A DNA stretch of 64,000 nt from positions 122,316-186,315 of the forward strand of contig JAEEQW010000003.1 in the NCBI GenBank assembly GCA_016285515.1, in the 5' to 3' direction. The stretch is from Bacteroidales bacterium (GTDB lineage Bacteria; Bacteroidota; Bacteroidia; Bacteroidales; BM520). The stretch's first letter is position 1. Each line of letters starts with the position of its first letter. Of this stretch, positions 3,412 through 47,143 are shown in pieces. The position numbers were made by a program, and so were the translations under genes. Below the pieces are notes generated by a model, which was not told the DNA's origin, ran no database searches, and saw only the letters and a program-made list of their open reading frames with translations.

Positions 3412-4791
3412 GTGCAGAAGATATTATTAGTATCGGCTAACAATTTTTCCAATCCATATCCGGTATATCCAATTGGACTTTCCTATCTGTGGACATACCA
3501 AAAGAAGAACCTTAAGAATTATGAGTTTGATTTTTTCGATTTCAACCTGAACTCATTTGATGATTTTGATAATATTCTTAAATCAAACCATTATAGATAT
3601 ATAGAACTGTCACTCCGAAACATAGATGATGTAAATATCTATTCAAGGAATACTTTTATCACACATTATAAGAAAATTACGTCTTATATAAGAAAATATT
3701 CCCAAGCTGTTCTTCTTGTGGGAGGTTCGGGATTTTCTATTTTCCCGGAACTGTTGCTGAAAGAACTTGAGGCCGATTACGGTATCAAAGGGGAAGGCGA
3801 AGAGAGTAACATACAATTAATCAATGCCTTGGATAATGGTGGGAAAGTGTCTGATATTGAGGGACTTGTGTATAGAAATGATGATGGTGATATTATTGTC
3901 AATGGCAGGGCTCATTTTGTCAGAAGTATTGATGTCCAATTTGATGAGCAACTGACGGAATTCTATTGGCCCAAATCGGGTATGCTCAACATACAGACGA
4001 AACGCGGCTGTCCGAAAAGGTGTATTTATTGCAGTTATCCTGTCATTGAGGGAAGAGTCGTCAGAACTCTTGACCCATACAAGGTTGTAGAGAATATTGT
4101 CGAATTAAACAGAAAAAAAGAAATAACATATCTTTTCTTCACTGATTCCATATTCAACATCAACAGGGAGTACAATTACAAACTTTGCAATCTCATAATT
4201 GACAGTGGCGTCAAGATTAACTGGGGTGCTTATTTTTCACCGTCAAACCTCACATACGAAGATCTTAAGCTGTATCAGAAGGCGGGACTTACCCATATAG
4301 AATTTGGCACGGAGTCGTTTTCTGATTCGCAACTTGTTAATTATCAGAAAGATTTTAAATTTGAGGACATATTGAGAACAAGCATATACTGTAATGACCT
4401 TGGGATTTTCTTCGCTCATTTTTTAATCTTGTGCGGTTATGGTGAAACTGAAGATTCGCTTGCGGAGACATTTGAAAACAGCAAAAAGATTGAAAATTCA
4501 GTTTTTTTCCCTTATATAGGGATGAGAATTTATCCGGATACAGATTTGTGTGATGTTGCATTGAAGGAAGGAATAATCAAAGACAAGTCGGAGCTAATAA
4601 ACCCGATATATTACATTTCCAAAGATGTTGATATTTCGCATCTGAAGGAGGATGCTGCAAAAACAGGTATGACATGGGTTTTTCCTGACACTCCTGAAAG
4701 TCCTGTTGTCGTAGTACTGCGCAAGCGCAAAGTCCGCGGTCCGATGTGGGAATATTATCGGTATTATGCGAACAGTGGAGAGTATTTATGA
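3412..4791 (+). CDS. B12-binding-domain radical SAM protein, substrate unknown
   Basis: 459 aa with a GTG start per the ORF track. It has an N-terminal Rossmann-like B12-binding region and the radical SAM motif CPKRCIYCSYP (CxxxCxxC). Confidence 0.8.
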   Translation: MQKILLVSANNFSNPYPVYPIGLSYLWTYQKKNLKNYEFDFFDFNLNSFDDFDNILKSNHYRYIELSLRNIDDVNIYSRNTFITHYKKITSYIRKYSQAVLLVGGSGFSIFPELLLKELEADYGIKGEGEESNIQLINALDNGGKVSDIEGLVYRNDDGDIIVNGRAHFVRSIDVQFDEQLTEFYWPKSGMLNIQTKRGCPKRCIYCSYPVIEGRVVRTLDPYKVVENIVELNRKKEITYLFFTDSIFNINREYNYKLCNLIIDSGVKINWGAYFSPSNLTYEDLKLYQKAGLTHIEFGTESFSDSQLVNYQKDFKFEDILRTSIYCNDLGIFFAHFLILCGYGETEDSLAETFENSKKIENSVFFPYIGMRIYPDTDLCDVALKEGIIKDKSELINPIYYISKDVDISHLKEDAAKTGMTWVFPDTPESPVVVVLRKRKVRGPMWEYYRYYANSGEYL

Positions 4792-4821
4792 GACTTTACA
4801 AAGTTAAAGTGCCAATCGGCG

Positions 4822-5475
4822 TCAGTTATCAAAGACATATTGGATTATATTGGCACCCATACGCAGAGCTTTCTGATGATTCTCCTCGGAGTCATGATGA
4901 ACTGCGGTAGCTTCCCAGCCGTCACCCAAATCACATTCATAAGTGAAAAGACACACCAAACGTCCTTCATAATAAATGCCGAATGCTTGCGGCGGCTTAT
5001 TGTCGTGCTCATGTATCTTGGGCAATCCTGCCTTGAACTCATATTTCTGATGAAAGATGGGATGTGAGAATGGAAGTTCCACAAAATCAGTCTCCGGAAA
5101 TACCTTTTTTATCTCTCTGAAAACATACGGCTTAATGCCATAGTTGTCGTCAATATGAAGAAATCCTCCGGAAATCATGTATTGGCGCAAGTTCCTGACG
5201 TCACTGTCTGAAAATAGGATGTTGCCGTGACCGGTGATATGCACAAAAGGATAATTGAATATGTCTGCACTGCCAACTTCAACAGTTGCGGGTACTGGGT
5301 CAATGGTTGTACCGATGTTCTGATTGCAGAATTCGATTAGATTGGGCAATGATGTCGGATTTGCATACCAATCACCGCCACCGGAATATTTGCACAGCGC
5401 TATTTTGACGGTTGACTGTGCGTAGATGGTCATAGAGCTGGAAATCAGTAATATAACGATTATAAATCTTTTCAT
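4822..5475 (-). CDS. DUF4159-like secreted protein
   Basis: Signal peptide MKRFIIVILLISSSMTIYAQ and the motif KYSGGGDWYANPTSLPNL typical of DUF4159. The start overlaps the rsmE stop by 1 nt (TAATG). Confidence 0.7.
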   Translation of the reverse strand: MKRFIIVILLISSSMTIYAQSTVKIALCKYSGGGDWYANPTSLPNLIEFCNQNIGTTIDPVPATVEVGSADIFNYPFVHITGHGNILFSDSDVRNLRQYMISGGFLHIDDNYGIKPYVFREIKKVFPETDFVELPFSHPIFHQKYEFKAGLPKIHEHDNKPPQAFGIYYEGRLVCLFTYECDLGDGWEATAVHHDSEENHQKALRMGANIIQYVFDN

Positions 5476-13153: not shown

Positions 13154-13226
13154 AGCGGGAAACGGGTCTCGAACCCGCGACCTTCAGCTTGGGAAGCTGA
13201 CGCTCTGCCAACTGAGCTACTCCCGC
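13154..13226 (-). tRNA. tRNA-Gly (anticodon CCC)
   Basis: Manual cloverleaf on the reverse strand: GCGGGAG-TA-GCTC-AGTTGGCA-GAGC-G-TCAGC-TTCCCAA-GCTGA-AGGTC-GCGGG-TTCGAGA-CCCGT-TTCCCGC-T. It is 73 nt and has no encoded CCA. Confidence 0.9.
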
Positions 13227-35011: not shown

Positions 35012-35378
35012 AGAGTGGTTTGTTCTATCGCTGCGAAGAGATTCGGAGAGGAAAGTCGGGACAACACAGAGCACCATACTTCCTAACAGGAAGGGGCAGG
35101 GGAGACTCTGTCACAGATAGCGTCGCAGAAACTATACCGCCGTGGAATTTTATTTCGCGGTAAGGGTGAAAACGTGAGGTAAGAGCTCACGCTATGATAT
35201 GGCAACATATTGTGGGGACAAGCCTTATGGGTTGAAATGCCAAATAAACCGGAGAGTCTGCTTTGCAGGCTAAGGGTTGCTCGTCCGATTCCGGGGGGTA
35301 GGCAGATAGAGGTGCGAGGTGACTCGCATCGTAGATAAATGATAGGACACGACAGAATCCCGCTTATAGAGCCACAAG
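35012..35378 (+). ncRNA. rnpB: RNase P RNA, bacterial type A
   Basis: The universally conserved blocks GAGGAAAGTCGGGAC (near 35050) and ACGACAGAATCCCGCTTAT (near 35350) are present. P1 pairing is GTGG...CTAT with ATAG..CCAC, and a strong terminator follows. The ends are approximate (about +/-5 nt). Confidence 0.9.
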
Positions 35379-35417
35379 GAAATCTTCCGGGTTTTTCTCG
35401 GAAGATTTCTTTTTTTG
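35379..35417 (+). terminator. Intrinsic terminator after rnpB
   Basis: An 11-bp stem, GAAATCTTCCG (35379-89) with CGGAAGATTTC (35399-409), followed by a T-run. Confidence 0.75.
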
Positions 35418-42006: not shown

Positions 42007-43170
42007 TTACAACGATGCCACCAAAATCTCTTTGATGTCCTGCTCAGTCAGCGGTGCGTATGCGTTCTCCAGTCCTTCGTTGACAGCGATGTGGTGTGCC
42101 ATTTCGTCGAGGCGGCTGTCATCGATACCCACTTCGCGCAAGTGCATCGGAATGTTGATGCTCTCGAAGAAACGGTAGGTCTCGTTGATGGCTCTCTCGG
42201 CAATTTCTTGCTTAGGCAGCGTGGAATCGATGCCGAATACGTTGACGCCATATTTCACGAAACGGTCGATGGTCTTCTCGTTGAGGATATGACGCATCCA
42301 GCGTGGGGTGATGATGGCCAGGCCTTCGCCGTGTGTGATGTCGTAGTAAGCGCTCAGAGCGTGCTCGATTCCATGACAGGGCCAACCTGAAGGGCTATTG
42401 CCGAGCGATAGGATACCGTTGCATCCGTAGGTGCAGCAGAGCATCATTTCGGCGCGTGCAGTGTAGTCTTCCGGGTTTTCTAAACATTTGCGACCGTTGA
42501 CCATCAGCGAGCGCAGCATTGACTCGCAGAAACCATCGTTGAGTAGGGTGGTGTCGGCAGCGAAGTACTGCTCGATGGTGTGGTTCATCGCATCGGCGAT
42601 ACCGGCAGCGGTTTGTTTGCGGCTTACAGTAAAAGTGTAGGTGGGGTCAAGAAACGAGACGCGCGGGTAAAGCAGCGAGTCAATATAGCCTATTTTGTCG
42701 TTGGTCTCGGTGCGTGAGATGACGCCGCCGGCATCGTATTCGCTACCTGTTGCGGCGAGGGTTATGATATCGACTATAGGCAGGGCTGCCTTCGCTTTTA
42801 CTTTGTAGGTGATGAGGTCCCACGGGTCGCCATCATAGCAGGCTCCGGCGGCGATAGCCTTCGAGCAGTCGAGCACTGAACCTCCGCCCACTGAAAGGAT
42901 TACATCCACATTATGTTCTTTGCACAGGCGTACACCGTCCAATACGCTGGGGTCATATTTTGGGTTGGGCTGGATGCCGCCAAGTTCCACGATTTCGTAC
43001 CCTTTCAGCAGTTCCATCACTTTCTGGTATAGTCCTATTTTCTTGATGCTCCCACCGCCGTAGGTGAGAAGTATTCTCTTTCCGAACTGCTCCATCACCT
43101 TAGGCAGTTTCTCGACAACGCCCTTGCCAAAAATAAGGCGTGTTGGAGTCATGTAATTAAAGTTCTGCAT
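42007..43170 (-). CDS. Iron-containing alcohol dehydrogenase (butanol dehydrogenase/YqhD-like)
   Basis: 387 aa with GGGS nucleotide-binding motifs (TYGGGSIKK, SVGGGSVLD) and metal-binding His residues (HGIEHALS). Confidence 0.9.
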   Translation of the reverse strand: MQNFNYMTPTRLIFGKGVVEKLPKVMEQFGKRILLTYGGGSIKKIGLYQKVMELLKGYEIVELGGIQPNPKYDPSVLDGVRLCKEHNVDVILSVGGGSVLDCSKAIAAGACYDGDPWDLITYKVKAKAALPIVDIITLAATGSEYDAGGVISRTETNDKIGYIDSLLYPRVSFLDPTYTFTVSRKQTAAGIADAMNHTIEQYFAADTTLLNDGFCESMLRSLMVNGRKCLENPEDYTARAEMMLCCTYGCNGILSLGNSPSGWPCHGIEHALSAYYDITHGEGLAIITPRWMRHILNEKTIDRFVKYGVNVFGIDSTLPKQEIAERAINETYRFFESINIPMHLREVGIDDSRLDEMAHHIAVNEGLENAYAPLTEQDIKEILVASL

Positions 43171-43264: not shown

Positions 43265-43341
43265 CAACTATTTCTGACATACTGCTTTCACATAATTCGA
43301 CAATATTTTCAAAATTTGCCAGTTGAATCTATTTAATTATG

Positions 43342-43349
43342 TATTTTTG
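43342..43349 (+). promoter_or_regulatory. -7 promoter box driving the cobalamin riboswitch leader
   Basis: TATTTTTG, about 6-10 nt upstream of the predicted aptamer 5' end. Confidence 0.5.
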
Positions 43350-43353
43350 TCGC

Positions 43354-43512
43354 CGGATTCAGGTTCCAAAAGATTAATAGGGAATCCTGTGGAAATCAGG
43401 AGCTATGCCCGTAGCTGTAAGTTCAATGATAGACCTGCGGCATCAACGTCACTGACCTTGTGTCGGGAAGACGTCGCTGGTTTGAACAAGCCAGAAGACC
43501 TGCCTGTATCCT
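43354..43512 (+). promoter_or_regulatory. Cobalamin (B12) riboswitch aptamer
   Basis: Conserved core elements are present: TTAATAGGGAATCCTGTGGAAATCAGGAGCTATGCCCGTAGCTGTAAG, then GTCACTG...GGGAAG, and the B12 box GCCAGAAGACCTGCC at 43490..43504. P1 pairs CAGGT (43360-64) with ACCTG (43498-502). Confidence 0.85.
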
Positions 43513-43526
43513 ATATTCGCAGCTTT

Positions 43527-43585
43527 CGGGAACAAAAGCGTGGGAATCAAAGTGAAACGGATTTCCCGTTTCTTTTTCTCATTTT
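43527..43585 (+). terminator. Riboswitch expression platform / candidate intrinsic terminator
   Basis: There are alternative pairings: CGGGAA (43527-32) with TTCCCG (43563-68), and GGGAATC (43542-48) with GATTTCCC (43560-67). The U-rich tract GTTTCTTTTTCTCATTTTG follows. Confidence 0.45.
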
Positions 43586-43631
43586 GTCCTATTGCTGCTG
43601 TTTTTAAGTTGAACATGTAACAATTGTGTTT

Positions 43632-44799
43632 ATGAAGAAACAGTATCAAGCAGTTACGGCCGAGGAAGCCGTCAAAGTCATCAAGTCGGGCGACCATGTC
43701 CACATCAGCTCGGTGTCGAATGTGCCGCAATGTTTGGTTAAAGCGCTATGCGACCGGGGACGTGCCGGTGAATTGAAAAATGTTTACATCCATCACCTTC
43801 ACACTGAAGGCGCCGCTCCTTACGTACAGCCGGAATTTGAAGGCATCTTCCAGCACAACGCCTTTTTCGTCGGATCCAATGTGAGGGAGAGTGTGCAGAA
43901 AGGATTGGCGGACTACATTCCCGTTTTTCTTGGCGAGACCTCAAAACTCTATCGTGAGCGTTATATCAAGTGCAATGTGGCGATGATTCAGGTGTGTCCG
44001 CCTGACAAGTTCGGATACGTCTCTTTGGGGCCGTCAGTGGATGCCACATTAGCCGCCATGGAGAGTGCTGAGTTCGTCATTGCCGTGGTCAACAAGTATG
44101 TGCCCCGAACCTTCGGCGATGCTTTGGTACATATCAGTAGAATCAATGTCTTTGTAGAAGATGACACTTCATTACTCACCGTTGACATGCCTGAACCCAA
44201 TGAAGTTGAGAAGACTAAAGGAGGGCGTTATCACGGGCAACAACAAGAAGCTCAACAAAGGCAAAATAGTCTCAACTTTTGTGATGGGTTCACAGAAAAT
44301 TTACAATTTCATCGATGGCAATCACGAAGTGTTGCTGATGGACGTGGAATACACCAACGACCCCTTCATCATCGCACAACAACCCAAGATGACTTCCATA
44401 AACTCTGGCATTCAGATTGACTTGTCGGGACAAGTTTGTGCCGACTCCTTGGGCGAGCGCATTTATTCTGGTGTAGGTGGACAGATCGATTACGTCTATG
44501 GCGCTTCGCGCTCCATAGGTGGCAAGGCCATCATCGCAATGCCTTCCACAACACGCAAGGGTATCAACAAGATTGTACCCACATTGGACTTGGGTTCAGG
44601 TGCTGTCACCACACGCAACCACATCCACTGGTTCGTCACAGAATACGGCGCTGTGAACCTATATGGTCGCTCGTTGCAAGAACGTGCCAAACTTATCATC
44701 TCGGTGGCACACCCACAGTTCCAGGAGATGCTTGATGAGGCAGCCTTCAAACGTTTTGGACCACATTATCATTACATTTGCAAAACCAATATCATTTAA
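43632..44799 (+). pseudogene. 4-hydroxybutyrate/acetyl-CoA CoA-transferase family gene, disrupted by an internal deletion plus frameshift
   Basis: Two overlapping ORFs in different frames (43626..44420 and 44161..44799). Frame A matches the family N-terminal half up to ...MPEPNEVEK (about 44214). Frame B matches the C-terminal half from ...LKEGVITGNNKK (about 44215) to the end. About 50 residues expected between them, including the GIG.IP and GIHTEM catalytic-Glu region, are absent. Confidence 0.65.
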
Positions 44800-44810
44800 T
44801 TAAAGTAATT

Positions 44811-45107
44811 ATGGTAAATTTCAGTATTTGGGAGGTCTTGTTCCTCTGTTGCTTTGCGATTAGCTGGCCGGTGTCCATCGCAAAGTCGCTTCGCACCAAG
44901 ATAGTCATAGGTAAAAGCCCGCTTTTCATGTCTCTTGTTATCTTGGGATATATCTTTGGTATTATCCATAAACTATTGTATAGCAGGGATATAGTAATAT
45001 GGCTATATGTATTTAATGCCTTATTGGTTAGTTTTGACCTATTCTTGTATTTTCTATATATCGGACGGAATCGCAAACAGTTGGAAAGCAACAACGGCAA
45101 ACTATAG
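44811..45107 (+). CDS. Small 3-TM membrane protein, PQ-loop/SemiSWEET-like (tentative)
   Basis: 98 aa from the ATG at 44811. The pattern FAISWPVSIAKSLRTK after TM1, followed by two more TM helices, resembles PQ-loop/LAB_N-type 3-TM proteins. Confidence 0.5.
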   Translation: MVNFSIWEVLFLCCFAISWPVSIAKSLRTKIVIGKSPLFMSLVILGYIFGIIHKLLYSRDIVIWLYVFNALLVSFDLFLYFLYIGRNRKQLESNNGKL

Positions 45108-45113
45108 GATGAT

Positions 45114-45707
45114 ATGGGAAAGATTAATTTTGTAGAGATCTTCGGCTCATTTATTGTGATGTTCGCCATCATTGACATTTTTGGGTCTATCCCCATTTTC
45201 ATTAGTATCCGGGAGAAACAACAGAACATCAAGGCGGCGCAAGCCTGCCTCACGGCTTTGGGGCTTTTTCTGCTCTTCTTCTTTGCCGGTGATGCCCTAT
45301 TAAGGCTGTTTGGCATCAATTCGGCCTCTTTTGCAGTAGCTGGCGCGTTTGTTCTGTTCATTTTGGCGGTTGAGATGGTGTTGGGGCGCGACATCATCAA
45401 AAACGAGCCAAACAGTAGCAGTGTGAGTGTTGTGCCTGTCGCTTTTCCGCTTATTGCCGGTCCGGGAGCCATTACCGCCCTGCTTTCCCTCCGTGCAGAC
45501 CACGCCACATGTAACATTCTGCTGGGATTGCTGTTGAATATTATTTTGGACTATATGGTAATCAAGTATCTTGACAAGATTCAGCGTCTGTTAGGCAACA
45601 ATATGATATTCATCATCCGCAAATTTTTTGGTGTTATTTTGCTGGCTATGGCTGTGAATATGTTTGTAAGCAACATAGCCGTTATTATATCACAAGTGAC
45701 GAAGTAA
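45114..45707 (+). CDS. MarC family (UPF0056) membrane protein
   Basis: 197 aa with N-terminus FGSFIVMFAIIDIFGSIPIFISI and an internal PLIAGPGAIT motif typical of MarC. Confidence 0.8.
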   Translation: MGKINFVEIFGSFIVMFAIIDIFGSIPIFISIREKQQNIKAAQACLTALGLFLLFFFAGDALLRLFGINSASFAVAGAFVLFILAVEMVLGRDIIKNEPNSSSVSVVPVAFPLIAGPGAITALLSLRADHATCNILLGLLLNIILDYMVIKYLDKIQRLLGNNMIFIIRKFFGVILLAMAVNMFVSNIAVIISQVTK

Positions 45708-45796: not shown

Positions 45797-47143
45797 TTAT
45801 TTCAAGGCATTTATCCATTCTGCAATATCGCTGAGAACCTCGGGTGATATAGTCTCTTCTATCTGACGGTACTCGTTCATAAGACCGGTATTGCAGTGTT
45901 GGAAAAGGTGGTTGAGTCCGGCGTATTCCTTCGTCACGTTCTTCTTTGACTTAGGTAATAGCCGCTCGATGGCGGTAAGGTTGAGAGAGGAAATGACCTG
46001 AAAGTCGCGGTCACCGTTGAGCGCGAATACAGGGCAGCGTGTGGCGGCAATGTTGGCAGATGGGTCATAGTCTATAAACCACTTATACCAAGGAACTTGC
46101 TGGATTTCCGGCGAATGTCGTACTGAGTCGGCGGTCATGGTGCCTTTTCCTCCATATATTTCAACCATGCGGTTTTGTTGTGATGCTATAAGCGTGTCGC
46201 CCTTTACACCAGGCCCAGCTAACGAAACGAGGAAGTCTGTCTTTCCTTGTGCAGCAAGCATGAAGCCTATCAGTCCGCCTTCGCTATGACCAATTAGTCC
46301 GACTTTAGAGAATGCTTTGAGGCTACGCAGATATTCCAGTCCTGCAGCTGCATCACGAGCGAAGTCCTCGCTCGTGGCATTCTTCAAATCGCCACCTACG
46401 GATGCACCCGTGGCGCGGTCGTCGTAGCGTAGCGAAGCAATTCCCTGACGTGCCAGATAGTCGGCAATGACGAGGAATGGCTTATGGTCGAAGATTTCTT
46501 CGTCCCGGTTCTCCTCACCACTGCCCGTAACAAACAAGAGAACAATGGGTTTCTTTTCTGACTTTGCGTTGTATCCTACAGGCCACGTTAGAGTTCCGGC
46601 CAGTGTGGCACCGTCACTTTCATTTCTGAACGTCACCTCTTCTGTCTCGTATGGAAATGGCGGCTTTGGTGTCTGCGGACGATTAAGCACTTCTTCACCC
46701 TTTATCAGCACCAGCGGAAGAGACATGCCATTTTGGGTGAACGTTCCGTCGAGTTTGCCATCTTTTAGCCGTGCTGCGTAAGTGAGGTTGAGCTGCTTTA
46801 CCGATACTGCCAAAGAATCATCCGACAGAAAATCCTTATAGCAACCGATGCCTTTGACACTCTGGTCGGGGCTATCCATCGTCACTGTCACGTAGCCGTC
46901 GGCCTGCTCAAGATTAAATACCAGCGTCAGATTTGCTACGCCTAAGTCAAGTTTGCCTGACCAAGAACCGAGCAGGGTAGTGGTGGACTGAACTTTGTTT
47001 TGGGCAAATGTGACCATCGATGCGAGCATCAGAAGGAAGGTGATGATGTGTTTTTTGTTTTCCAGTTTCTTCGCTATGATGTTCAGTACGGTGTAAATGC
47101 AGCCGTTAGCGTGTGGGCTGCCATTGATATGGAGTGCATTCAT
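45797..47143 (-). CDS. Secreted alpha/beta hydrolase (serine hydrolase)
   Basis: 448 aa with nucleophile elbow GHSEGG and a C-terminal alpha/beta fold. The N-terminal ~25 aa before the signal-like segment (KKHIITFLLMLASMVTFAQ) look odd, so the start is uncertain. Confidence 0.7.
   Translation of the reverse strand: MNALHINGSPHANGCIYTVLNIIAKKLENKKHIITFLLMLASMVTFAQNKVQSTTTLLGSWSGKLDLGVANLTLVFNLEQADGYVTVTMDSPDQSVKGIGCYKDFLSDDSLAVSVKQLNLTYAARLKDGKLDGTFTQNGMSLPLVLIKGEEVLNRPQTPKPPFPYETEEVTFRNESDGATLAGTLTWPVGYNAKSEKKPIVLLFVTGSGEENRDEEIFDHKPFLVIADYLARQGIASLRYDDRATGASVGGDLKNATSEDFARDAAAGLEYLRSLKAFSKVGLIGHSEGGLIGFMLAAQGKTDFLVSLAGPGVKGDTLIASQQNRMVEIYGGKGTMTADSVRHSPEIQQVPWYKWFIDYDPSANIAATRCPVFALNGDRDFQVISSLNLTAIERLLPKSKKNVTKEYAGLNHLFQHCNTGLMNEYRQIEETISPEVLSDIAEWINALK

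Follow-up and report, generated by a model that had tools for sequence, protein, structure and literature searches.

A cobalamin riboswitch tied to a CoA-transferase–MarC module in rumen and gut Bacteroidales, with a disabled CoA-transferase gene in one strain

Why should a cobalamin (vitamin B12) riboswitch stand directly before a gene for a CoA-transferase? The question arises in a stretch of 64,000 nucleotides (nt) from a Bacteroidales bacterium (GenBank assembly GCA_016285515.1, contig JAEEQW010000003.1, positions 122,316 to 186,315 of the forward strand), hereafter the window, in which such a riboswitch heads a co-oriented group of genes for a CoA-transferase, a small three-helix membrane protein, and a MarC-family membrane protein. 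A sequence-only reading of this DNA had proposed that the CoA-transferase is an atypical member of the B12 regulon and had named, as one finding that would undo this proposal, evidence that the juxtaposition is a scar left by the loss of a transporter gene. Our comparison with related loci leads us to propose that the riboswitch-headed CoA-transferase/SemiSWEET-like/MarC operon is a lineage-specific member of the B12 regulon and that B12 lowers its expression, a reading to which we assign a probability of about 0.6. The disabled enzyme gene makes this finding weaker in the window itself.

A cobalamin riboswitch accompanies the CoA-transferase gene in most related species

The comparison drew on one genome per species and covered 80 loci, all from metagenome-assembled genomes of rumen or gut Bacteroidales, including Candidatus Limimorpha and "bacterium F082." Riboswitches were sought by nhmmer with a profile of the window-type riboswitch, and a subset was confirmed by Rfam at 57–112 bits. 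The open reading frame (ORF) for the CoA-transferase is intact in all 80 related species, MarC follows it on the 3′ side in 76 of 80, and a co-oriented cobalamin riboswitch lies upstream in 69 of 80. The distance varies: the riboswitch is at most 60 nt before the start codon in 19 species, 61–150 nt in 27, 151–500 nt in 5, and 1–4.4 kb upstream on the same strand in 18, and the other 11 have none within the available flank. Thus in 46 of the 80 loci an intact CoA-transferase gene has a riboswitch no more than 150 nt away, and in another 18 the gene stands behind riboswitch-controlled genes, which bears out the description of the enzyme as an atypical regulon member.

At the distal-riboswitch loci that we checked, the gap is filled by co-oriented genes that end 6–112 nt before the CoA-transferase gene. 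They encode DUF4465 proteins with type IX secretion system (T9SS) tails, a TonB-dependent receptor plus a CbiK-like protein, NrdD plus NrdG, a 319-amino-acid (aa) T9SS protein, or a 1389-aa fn3 protein. The DUF4465 domain binds B12 (PMC13398666). In locus L079, the CoA-transferase gene sits directly behind riboswitch-controlled nrdDG, 62 nt after nrdG.

At least two riboswitch lineages precede the same CoA-transferase gene. The lineage of the window, which we call type A, occurs only directly before this gene, in ≈40 species; this is the outcome of the survey of genes following orthologous riboswitches that the sequence-only reading had called for. In the five loci of the 151–500-nt class (L008, L015, L016, L024, and L028; positions ≈4560–5000, in L024 226–656), the leader of an fn3 gene is followed by a strong hairpin and U-run ≈35 nt before the start codon. 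These five look like products of rearrangement, likely through loss or relocation of the fn3 gene.

Such loci, along with the 11 species that have no riboswitch, are what would be expected if the juxtaposition were a scar of rearrangement that carried no regulatory consequence for the CoA-transferase. A scar from a lost transporter gene may indeed describe the five, but the idea fails for the riboswitch lineage of the window, where type A keeps to this one gene and its promoter box, its P13 helix, and its expression platform are conserved. The platform is, moreover, complementary to the first codons of this very gene, and the same linkage recurs with a second riboswitch lineage and in several operon fusions. 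We consider the scar explanation highly improbable; the comparative data show a link between riboswitch and CoA-transferase that appears to be selected, not accidental.

A second cobalamin riboswitch lineage stands before genes for fn3-repeat proteins of very large size, above 1300 aa (L002 7086–7268, L012 6928–7109, L003 395–577, and L016 7496–7687). The ORFs are partial, at 1176–1354 aa, where they run off the ends of L002, L012, and L016, and complete at 1389 aa in L003. The fn3-gene riboswitch lies 3′ of the CoA-transferase–MarC module in L002, L012, and L016, directly after MarC in the first two. DUF4465 is absent from these proteins, which may represent B12-regulated surface proteins not described before.

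The CoA-transferase gene of the window is a deletion pseudogene

Instead of one CoA-transferase ORF of ≈435–440 aa, the ORF listing of the window contains two overlapping ORFs in different frames, and the N-terminal frame continues past the point of disruption to a premature stop at 44418–44420. Together, the two cover positions 8–184 and 255–433 of a 445-position NCBIfam model, with ≈185–254 missing, and alignment with 438–440-aa homologs shows that the window lacks IGRYCAELIEDGACLQMGIGSIPNAILSCLHNHKDIGIHTEMFSDGILPLV. The strain represented by L088 is 99–100% identical on both flanks, has 152 additional nt exactly between 44217 and 44218, and carries an intact gene. The deleted segment encodes IGRYCAELIEDGACLQMGIGSIPNAILSCLHNHKDIGIHTEMFSDGILPLI, about 50 residues; its breakpoints share a 2-nt microhomology (TA), and the frame shifts because 152 is not divisible by three. 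The lost residues (...MGIGSIP...GIHTEM...) comprise the GxG loop and the catalytic Glu, both of which are present in the orthologs with a GIG-to-Glu spacing of 21 residues, the same as between G228 and E249 of RipA (PMC3180442) and between G212 and E233 of 2OAS. The CoA-transferase of the window is a frameshifted deletion pseudogene without an active site. The sequence-only reading had seen the riboswitch directly 5′ of a co-oriented CoA-transferase gene; the orientation and the family domains stand, whereas the gene is not intact, its PF02550 and PF13336 parts having been thrown into different frames by the 152-nt deletion.

The deletion allele is present in five contigs from at least four assemblies. 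One of these, L087, has the same junction and is only 97.7% identical over 1326 nt, and so it represents a different strain. A look-up of the 136-aa product matched deletion-allele contigs, and an exact-match look-up of the 262-aa truncated product gave no match. L090 and L091 encode an identical MarC protein together with an intact 439-aa CoA-transferase.

All of these records are metagenome assemblies, and all deletion contigs have JAEEG-series accessions and so may stem from one project, which leaves room for the deletion to be an artefact of assembly or sequencing in a genome whose real CoA-transferase gene is intact. A CoA-transferase homolog from an ENA metagenome, P0001, has an internal duplication that may itself be such an artefact. 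This explanation has to contend with the recurrence of one junction in five contigs and at least four assemblies, including the divergent strain, with the cleanness of that junction and its 2-nt microhomology, and with an independent in-frame deletion of the same region in eight contigs of another lineage. We judge an artefact quite improbable. The P0001 duplication is in tandem and spans ≈25 residues (AQQPKMTSINSGIQIDLSGQVCADS); it is either an assembly artefact or a real variant.

The independent deletion (L081–L085, 6001–7164; protein P0004) removes 51 aa in frame, with loss of the GxG loop and retention of the Glu, and in this lineage too the riboswitch and MarC are intact. Side by side, the two deletions look like recurrent loss of this enzyme. 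That two lineages independently lost the active-site segment with riboswitch and MarC intact suggests that there are conditions in which the enzyme can be spared or is disfavored by selection.

A tblastn search found no second CoA-transferase copy within the window. To judge from its sequence, this strain has no CoA-transferase activity left to route, and its riboswitch would govern only a dead enzyme fragment and two intact membrane-protein genes.

The aptamer and its promoter

A scan of the whole window with Rfam returned a full-length match to the cobalamin riboswitch model RF00174 (96.0 bits against a gathering threshold of 31.5; E = 1.2e-22; model positions 1–189 of 189), so the well-formed B12 aptamer recognized in the sequence-only reading passes the covariance-model scan proposed for it. 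The B12 box reads where it had been placed (Table 1). Orthologous riboswitches of the CoA-transferase loci score 97–112 bits on the same model; the RNA element itself is an ordinary RF00174 member.

The promoter box that had been assigned to the riboswitch fits the Bacteroidetes consensus TAnnTTTG. The box lies directly 5′ of helix P1 in 24 of 24 type-A orthologous leaders, and because it is kept while the DNA further upstream is unrelated, the promoter call is supported. We infer that transcription starts a few nt 3′ of this −7 box, at the foot of P1. A −33 TTTG at 43315–43318, with a 23-nt spacing to the −7 box, is a tentative addition.

Table 1. Positions of the riboswitch, leader, and operon features in the window. 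MFE, minimum free energy.
Feature	Positions	Strand	Basis
−7 promoter box TATTTTTG	43342..43349	+	sequence and conservation
Cobalamin riboswitch aptamer	43344..43521	+	RF00174 match; P1 pairs from full-leader fold
P1 helix	~43355-43364 paired with 43502-43511	+	full-leader fold
L5 loop UGCCCG	43406-43411 (CCCG = 43408-43411)	+	aptamer loop
B12 box GCCAGAAGACCTGCC (also written GCCAGAAGACCUGCC)	43490-43504	+	read from sequence
Extended P13 hairpin AUUCGCAGCUUU / AAAGCgUGGGAAU, ~11 bp (predicted)	43516..43547	+	MFE of transcripts truncated 5′ of the 3′ arm
Long composite helix, excludes P13 (predicted)	43519..43605	+	RNAalifold consensus; MFE
P13 core stem	43522-43526 paired with 43535-43539	+	hairpin kept in orthologs
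L13 loop CGGGAACA; its CGGG complements L5 CCCG	43527-43534	+	sequence complementarity
Apical hairpin GAAACGG-AUUUC-CCGUUUC, then U-rich tract UUUUUCUC (predicted)	43554..43572	+	terminator-like scan match
CoA-transferase pseudogene, N-terminal part (PF02550)	43632..44217	+	PF02550 90 bits; alignment to 438-440-aa homologs
Deletion junction, 152 nt absent relative to strain L088	44217..44218	+	blastn and exact-match mapping
CoA-transferase pseudogene, C-terminal part (PF13336), other frame	44218..44799	+	PF13336 195.9 bits; tblastn with P0002 covers residues 243-433
98-aa, three-helix membrane protein gene, intact	44811..45107	+	SemiSWEET-like predicted fold
MarC/NAAT-family membrane protein gene, intact, last of operon	45114..45707	+	PF01914, TIGR00427
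Convergent gene 3′ of MarC	45797-47143	−	ORF

Architecture of the leader

Immediately 3′ of P1, every orthologous leader contains the hairpin GCUUU-CGGGAACA-AAAGC. We assign it as P13, with its loop as the L13 of a classical kissing loop, because L5 and L13 stay complementary in nearly all riboswitch paralogs of these loci, and in L059 a CCUG in the one is matched by a compensatory CAGG in the other.

Beyond this hairpin, the orthologs fall into two halves. In about half, P13 lies ≈10 nt 5′ of the AUG with nothing else in the leader, a layout shared with the riboswitches before DUF4465 and TonB-receptor genes. The leaders of the other half, that of the window among them, are longer by ≈80 nt. 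Part of this added segment is the apical hairpin, whose stem varies in sequence among orthologs and always retains its pairing. It is enclosed by a long helix in which GCAGC (43519–43523) pairs with GCUGC (43594–43598), GGGAACAAAAG with UUUUGUCC, and GGGAA with UUCUC. The long helix is followed on the 3′ side by UG and five U in the window (43599–43605) and by UG and 5–9 U across orthologs. With the pyrimidine-rich 3′ arm included, this helix is the predicted MFE fold of 9 of 9 orthologs (−28 to −34 kcal/mol, ≈10 kcal/mol below the P13-locked fold) and likewise of every full leader folded through the U-run. The sequence-only reading's terminator-type platform after the aptamer is thus recovered in prediction, both as the hairpin and U-run at 43554–43572 and as a terminator-like long helix at 43519–43598.

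The 3′ arm has a second potential partner. An invariant 14-mer, UUGCUGCUGUUUUU (43592–43605), can pair over 14 of 14 nt with codons 2–8 of the coding sequence; the duplex with the start region has a predicted energy of −12 to −16 kcal/mol, a value reached by 1–5 of 500 shuffles.

Two simpler arrangements were rejected. A kissing interaction between the terminator loop GAUUUCC and an aptamer loop GGAAAUC is contradicted by the free variation of the former among orthologs, the conserved CGGG matching L5 instead. The apical hairpin and its U-tract fail as a regulated terminator in that the hairpin forms with P13 either locked or unlocked, and neither truncated nor full-leader folds revealed an antiterminator among the aptamer segments that would compete with it.

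The riboswitch before nrdD–nrdG in L079 (1916–2331) has a 246-nt leader that also contains a P13-competing helix, followed directly by a 5-codon upstream ORF (AUGAAUCAAUUACCCUGA).

Predicted response to B12

These elements can be combined into a model of repression. With B12 bound, the CGGG of L13 at the tip of the extended P13 would dock on the CCCG of aptamer loop L5. With P13 unlocked, the pyrimidine-rich 3′ arm would displace P13 and build the long helix that ends in GCUGC and the U-run; the alternative partner of this same arm would be the first codons of the gene. Binding of B12 would free the 3′ arm, the start region would become masked, and expression would drop. The resulting OFF logic would have three elements, with the anti-start strand hidden by the long helix when B12 is absent and free when it is present. 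In other species the module shares transcripts with B12-uptake and nrdDG genes, and the sign of its regulation here would match theirs.

The same folds could be read in the opposite direction. Were the default structure an intrinsic terminator, B12 would lock P13 through the L5–L13 kissing loop and allow read-through into the CoA-transferase–MarC genes, whose products would feed the B12-dependent route from succinate to propionate. Known ON switches such as pbuE work in this way, with a terminator by default and a ligand-stabilized antiterminator. Such logic would suit a leader in which P13 shares strands with the 5′ arm of a very stable helix ending GCUGC-UG-U5–9, in which the ≈10 kcal/mol separating the two folds is on the order of a ligand-binding energy, and in which the apical hairpin, formed whatever the state of P13, cannot be the regulated step. 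For an enzyme that supplied methylmalonyl-CoA mutase with activated succinate, an ON switch would also be biologically reasonable.

Genomic context argues the other way. Sister species with the same aptamer lineage place P13 ≈10 nt before the AUG and have no terminator, which is the classical OFF design and identical to that of B12-uptake genes. At least 15 species, furthermore, place the CoA-transferase gene 6–7 nt behind a riboswitch-controlled gene for a B12-binder. An ON switch would also be self-defeating, as in the sole read-through state the 3′ arm, now free, would cover the start codon and leave no state in which the genes are expressed. Five long-leader orthologs (L074–L078) retain the competing helix without the U-run, which we count against an ON switch and also against repression as modeled here. 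On balance, we regard activation by B12 as possible but doubtful, and repression of the operon as the sign that context somewhat favors.

Several further observations weigh against a B12-repressed, lineage-specific regulon member. The unlocked long helix has a near-ideal terminator geometry (GC-rich base, 2-nt spacer, and 5–9 U) that, taken alone, predicts termination without B12 and read-through with it, and in a thermodynamic model the start site is equally accessible with P13 free or locked. A riboswitch is missing within 5 kb in 11 of the 80 species, and none was found with the distant CoA-transferase homologs that we checked (63–66% identity), one of which keeps its MarC partner. Finally, the best NCBIfam matches, scored on the window fragments, lie far below equivalog cut-offs; for TIGR03948, the butyryl-CoA:acetate CoA-transferase equivalog, the fragments reach 95.2 and 148.4 bits against a cut-off of 674.8.

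The two membrane-protein genes

The pseudogene is followed after 11 nt by the 98-aa protein gene and this, after a further 6 nt, by marC, all in the same orientation, in keeping with the earlier suggestion that both downstream genes may share the transcript. The MarC assignment is confirmed by PF01914 (116 bits against 23.9) and TIGR00427 (100 bits against a cut-off of 99.2).

The 98-aa protein, described earlier as a PQ-loop-like protein with three transmembrane helices, has no Pfam match even at E = 10, the PQ-loop/MtN3 families included. Its 480 homologs all fall within this clade, and in a set of 26 homologs over half of the residues do not vary. An AlphaFold2 model consists of three helices (predicted local distance difference test score, 77), and the top 13 Protein Data Bank matches to it in Foldseek are SemiSWEETs, with template modeling scores of 0.54–0.78 (best 0.62–0.78), probabilities of 0.6–1.0, and E values of only 0.07–1.3; the mitochondrial pyruvate carrier and cystinosin come next. 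"PQ-loop-like" is a reasonable but weakly supported description of this predicted fold, with a SemiSWEET as its best match.

The genes of the operon differ in their closest relatives. When window positions 43632–45707 are compared with L001–L010 and L064–L072, the CoA-transferase DNA is nearer to one species group (82–88% against 76–81% identity) and MarC is nearer to the other (76–78% against 68–71%), to which the 98-aa gene is confined. This pattern suggests a mosaic operon with recombination within it.

Possible biochemical role

Intact orthologs of 438–440 aa align end to end with family I CoA-transferases (E = 1e-110 to 1e-127), and their closest solved relatives are 4-hydroxybutyrate and butyryl-type CoA-transferases. 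Our best guess, by analogy with metE and nrdDG, is that the module is a B12-sparing bypass for a B12-dependent acyl-CoA route; we propose this because the module occurs repeatedly in the B12-starvation regulon and once beside nrdDG. It would be needed when B12 is scarce: with methylmalonyl-CoA mutase deprived of its cofactor, the CoA-transferase would supply or discharge propionyl-, succinyl-, or related acyl-CoA, and MarC and the SemiSWEET-like protein would carry the acid across the membrane. A link to the conversion of succinate to propionate is plausible.

The company that the module keeps could instead point to a role in acquiring or remodeling cobamides, as it sits among B12-capture genes (DUF4465 proteins, TonB receptor, CbiK-like protein, and fn3 surface proteins) and several riboswitches. 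The kinship of the enzyme with 4-hydroxybutyrate and butyryl-CoA transferases runs counter to this, as does the occurrence of the CoA-transferase–MarC pair outside any B12 context in more distant relatives (L093), and we know of no cobamide-salvage step that uses a family I CoA-transferase. We think such a role quite improbable and favor the metabolic bypass.

Comparison with known systems

The aptamer closely resembles RF00174 riboswitches of the btuB/env8 type with an L5–L13 kissing loop, sharing the full-length model match, the B12 box, P1, a C-rich L5, and a G-rich L13 directly after P1, and many orthologs have P13 right against the start codon, as classical translational OFF switches do. 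It differs from that type in its target, a CoA-transferase–MarC operon instead of a gene for transport, biosynthesis, or a known B12-independent isozyme, and in the ≈80 nt added to the window leader, where P13 is opposed to a terminator-like helix whose 3′ arm also matches the first codons. With a pbuE-type ON riboswitch it shares a ligand-stabilized helix (here P13, through the kissing loop) that would share strands with the 5′ arm of a terminator-like hairpin; the ligand class is different, however, the stabilized helix is P13 and not P1, and the genomic context here argues for repression.

The related loci recall the btu operons of Bacteroides thetaiotaomicron, with their riboswitch-controlled BtuB/G/H/J and, in some, two riboswitches, in that they too have several riboswitches, DUF4465 (BtuH-type) B12-binders, a TonB-dependent receptor, and surface proteins (PMC13616437, PMC13398666). 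Those operons, as reviewed, include no CoA-transferase or MarC, whereas here the B12-binders of the related loci carry T9SS sorting domains and the window has no uptake gene. Like the family I CoA-transferases of known structure (2OAS, 3EH7, 3GK7, and Yersinia RipA, 3QLI), the intact orthologs keep the GxG loop and catalytic Glu; the window copy, frameshifted and with that segment gone, does not. Like the B12-independent isozymes encoded by metE and nrdDG, the module appears to be expressed from a cobalamin riboswitch, but no B12-dependent counterpart is defined for a CoA-transferase, so that the analogy is a hypothesis.

The RNA and protein families are already known, and what appears to be new is the target, the CoA-transferase–MarC module as a lineage-specific addition to the B12 regulon. 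We found no report in the searchable literature of a cobalamin riboswitch before this kind of CoA-transferase (acetyl-CoA hydrolase, 4-hydroxybutyrate CoA-transferase) or before MarC, an absence that does not establish novelty. Among the members of the clade is one of the most abundant rumen groups, whose function has been described as unclear (PMC9709288). Across 69 of 80 species of this abundant, uncultured rumen Bacteroidales clade, B12 sensing is tied to a CoA-transferase–MarC module, sometimes with the SemiSWEET-like protein. If this link is confirmed, the availability of B12 would directly tune the handling of short-chain acyl-CoA and organic acids, with a bearing on the balance of propionate and butyrate in the rumen, and it would offer a functional handle on two poorly understood membrane-protein families. 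Should the ON switch prove true instead, the module would be one switched on by the cofactor, feeding the B12-dependent succinate-to-propionate route in a dominant uncultured rumen clade. In either case, the platform is a good test case for how a kissing-loop riboswitch is coupled to transcription or translation in Bacteroidetes.

Other features of the window

Divergent from the riboswitch promoter lies a gene for an iron-containing alcohol dehydrogenase (42007–43170, minus strand), whose weak NCBIfam matches include 4-hydroxybutyrate dehydrogenase. With a tblastn probe, an alcohol dehydrogenase near the module was found in L053 only among the 80 relatives, so the adjacency is not conserved. 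The Rfam scan that identified the aptamer also matched a bacterial RNase P RNA of class A at 35012–35382 on the plus strand (229.8 bits) and a tRNA gene at 13154–13226 on the minus strand (66.2 bits).

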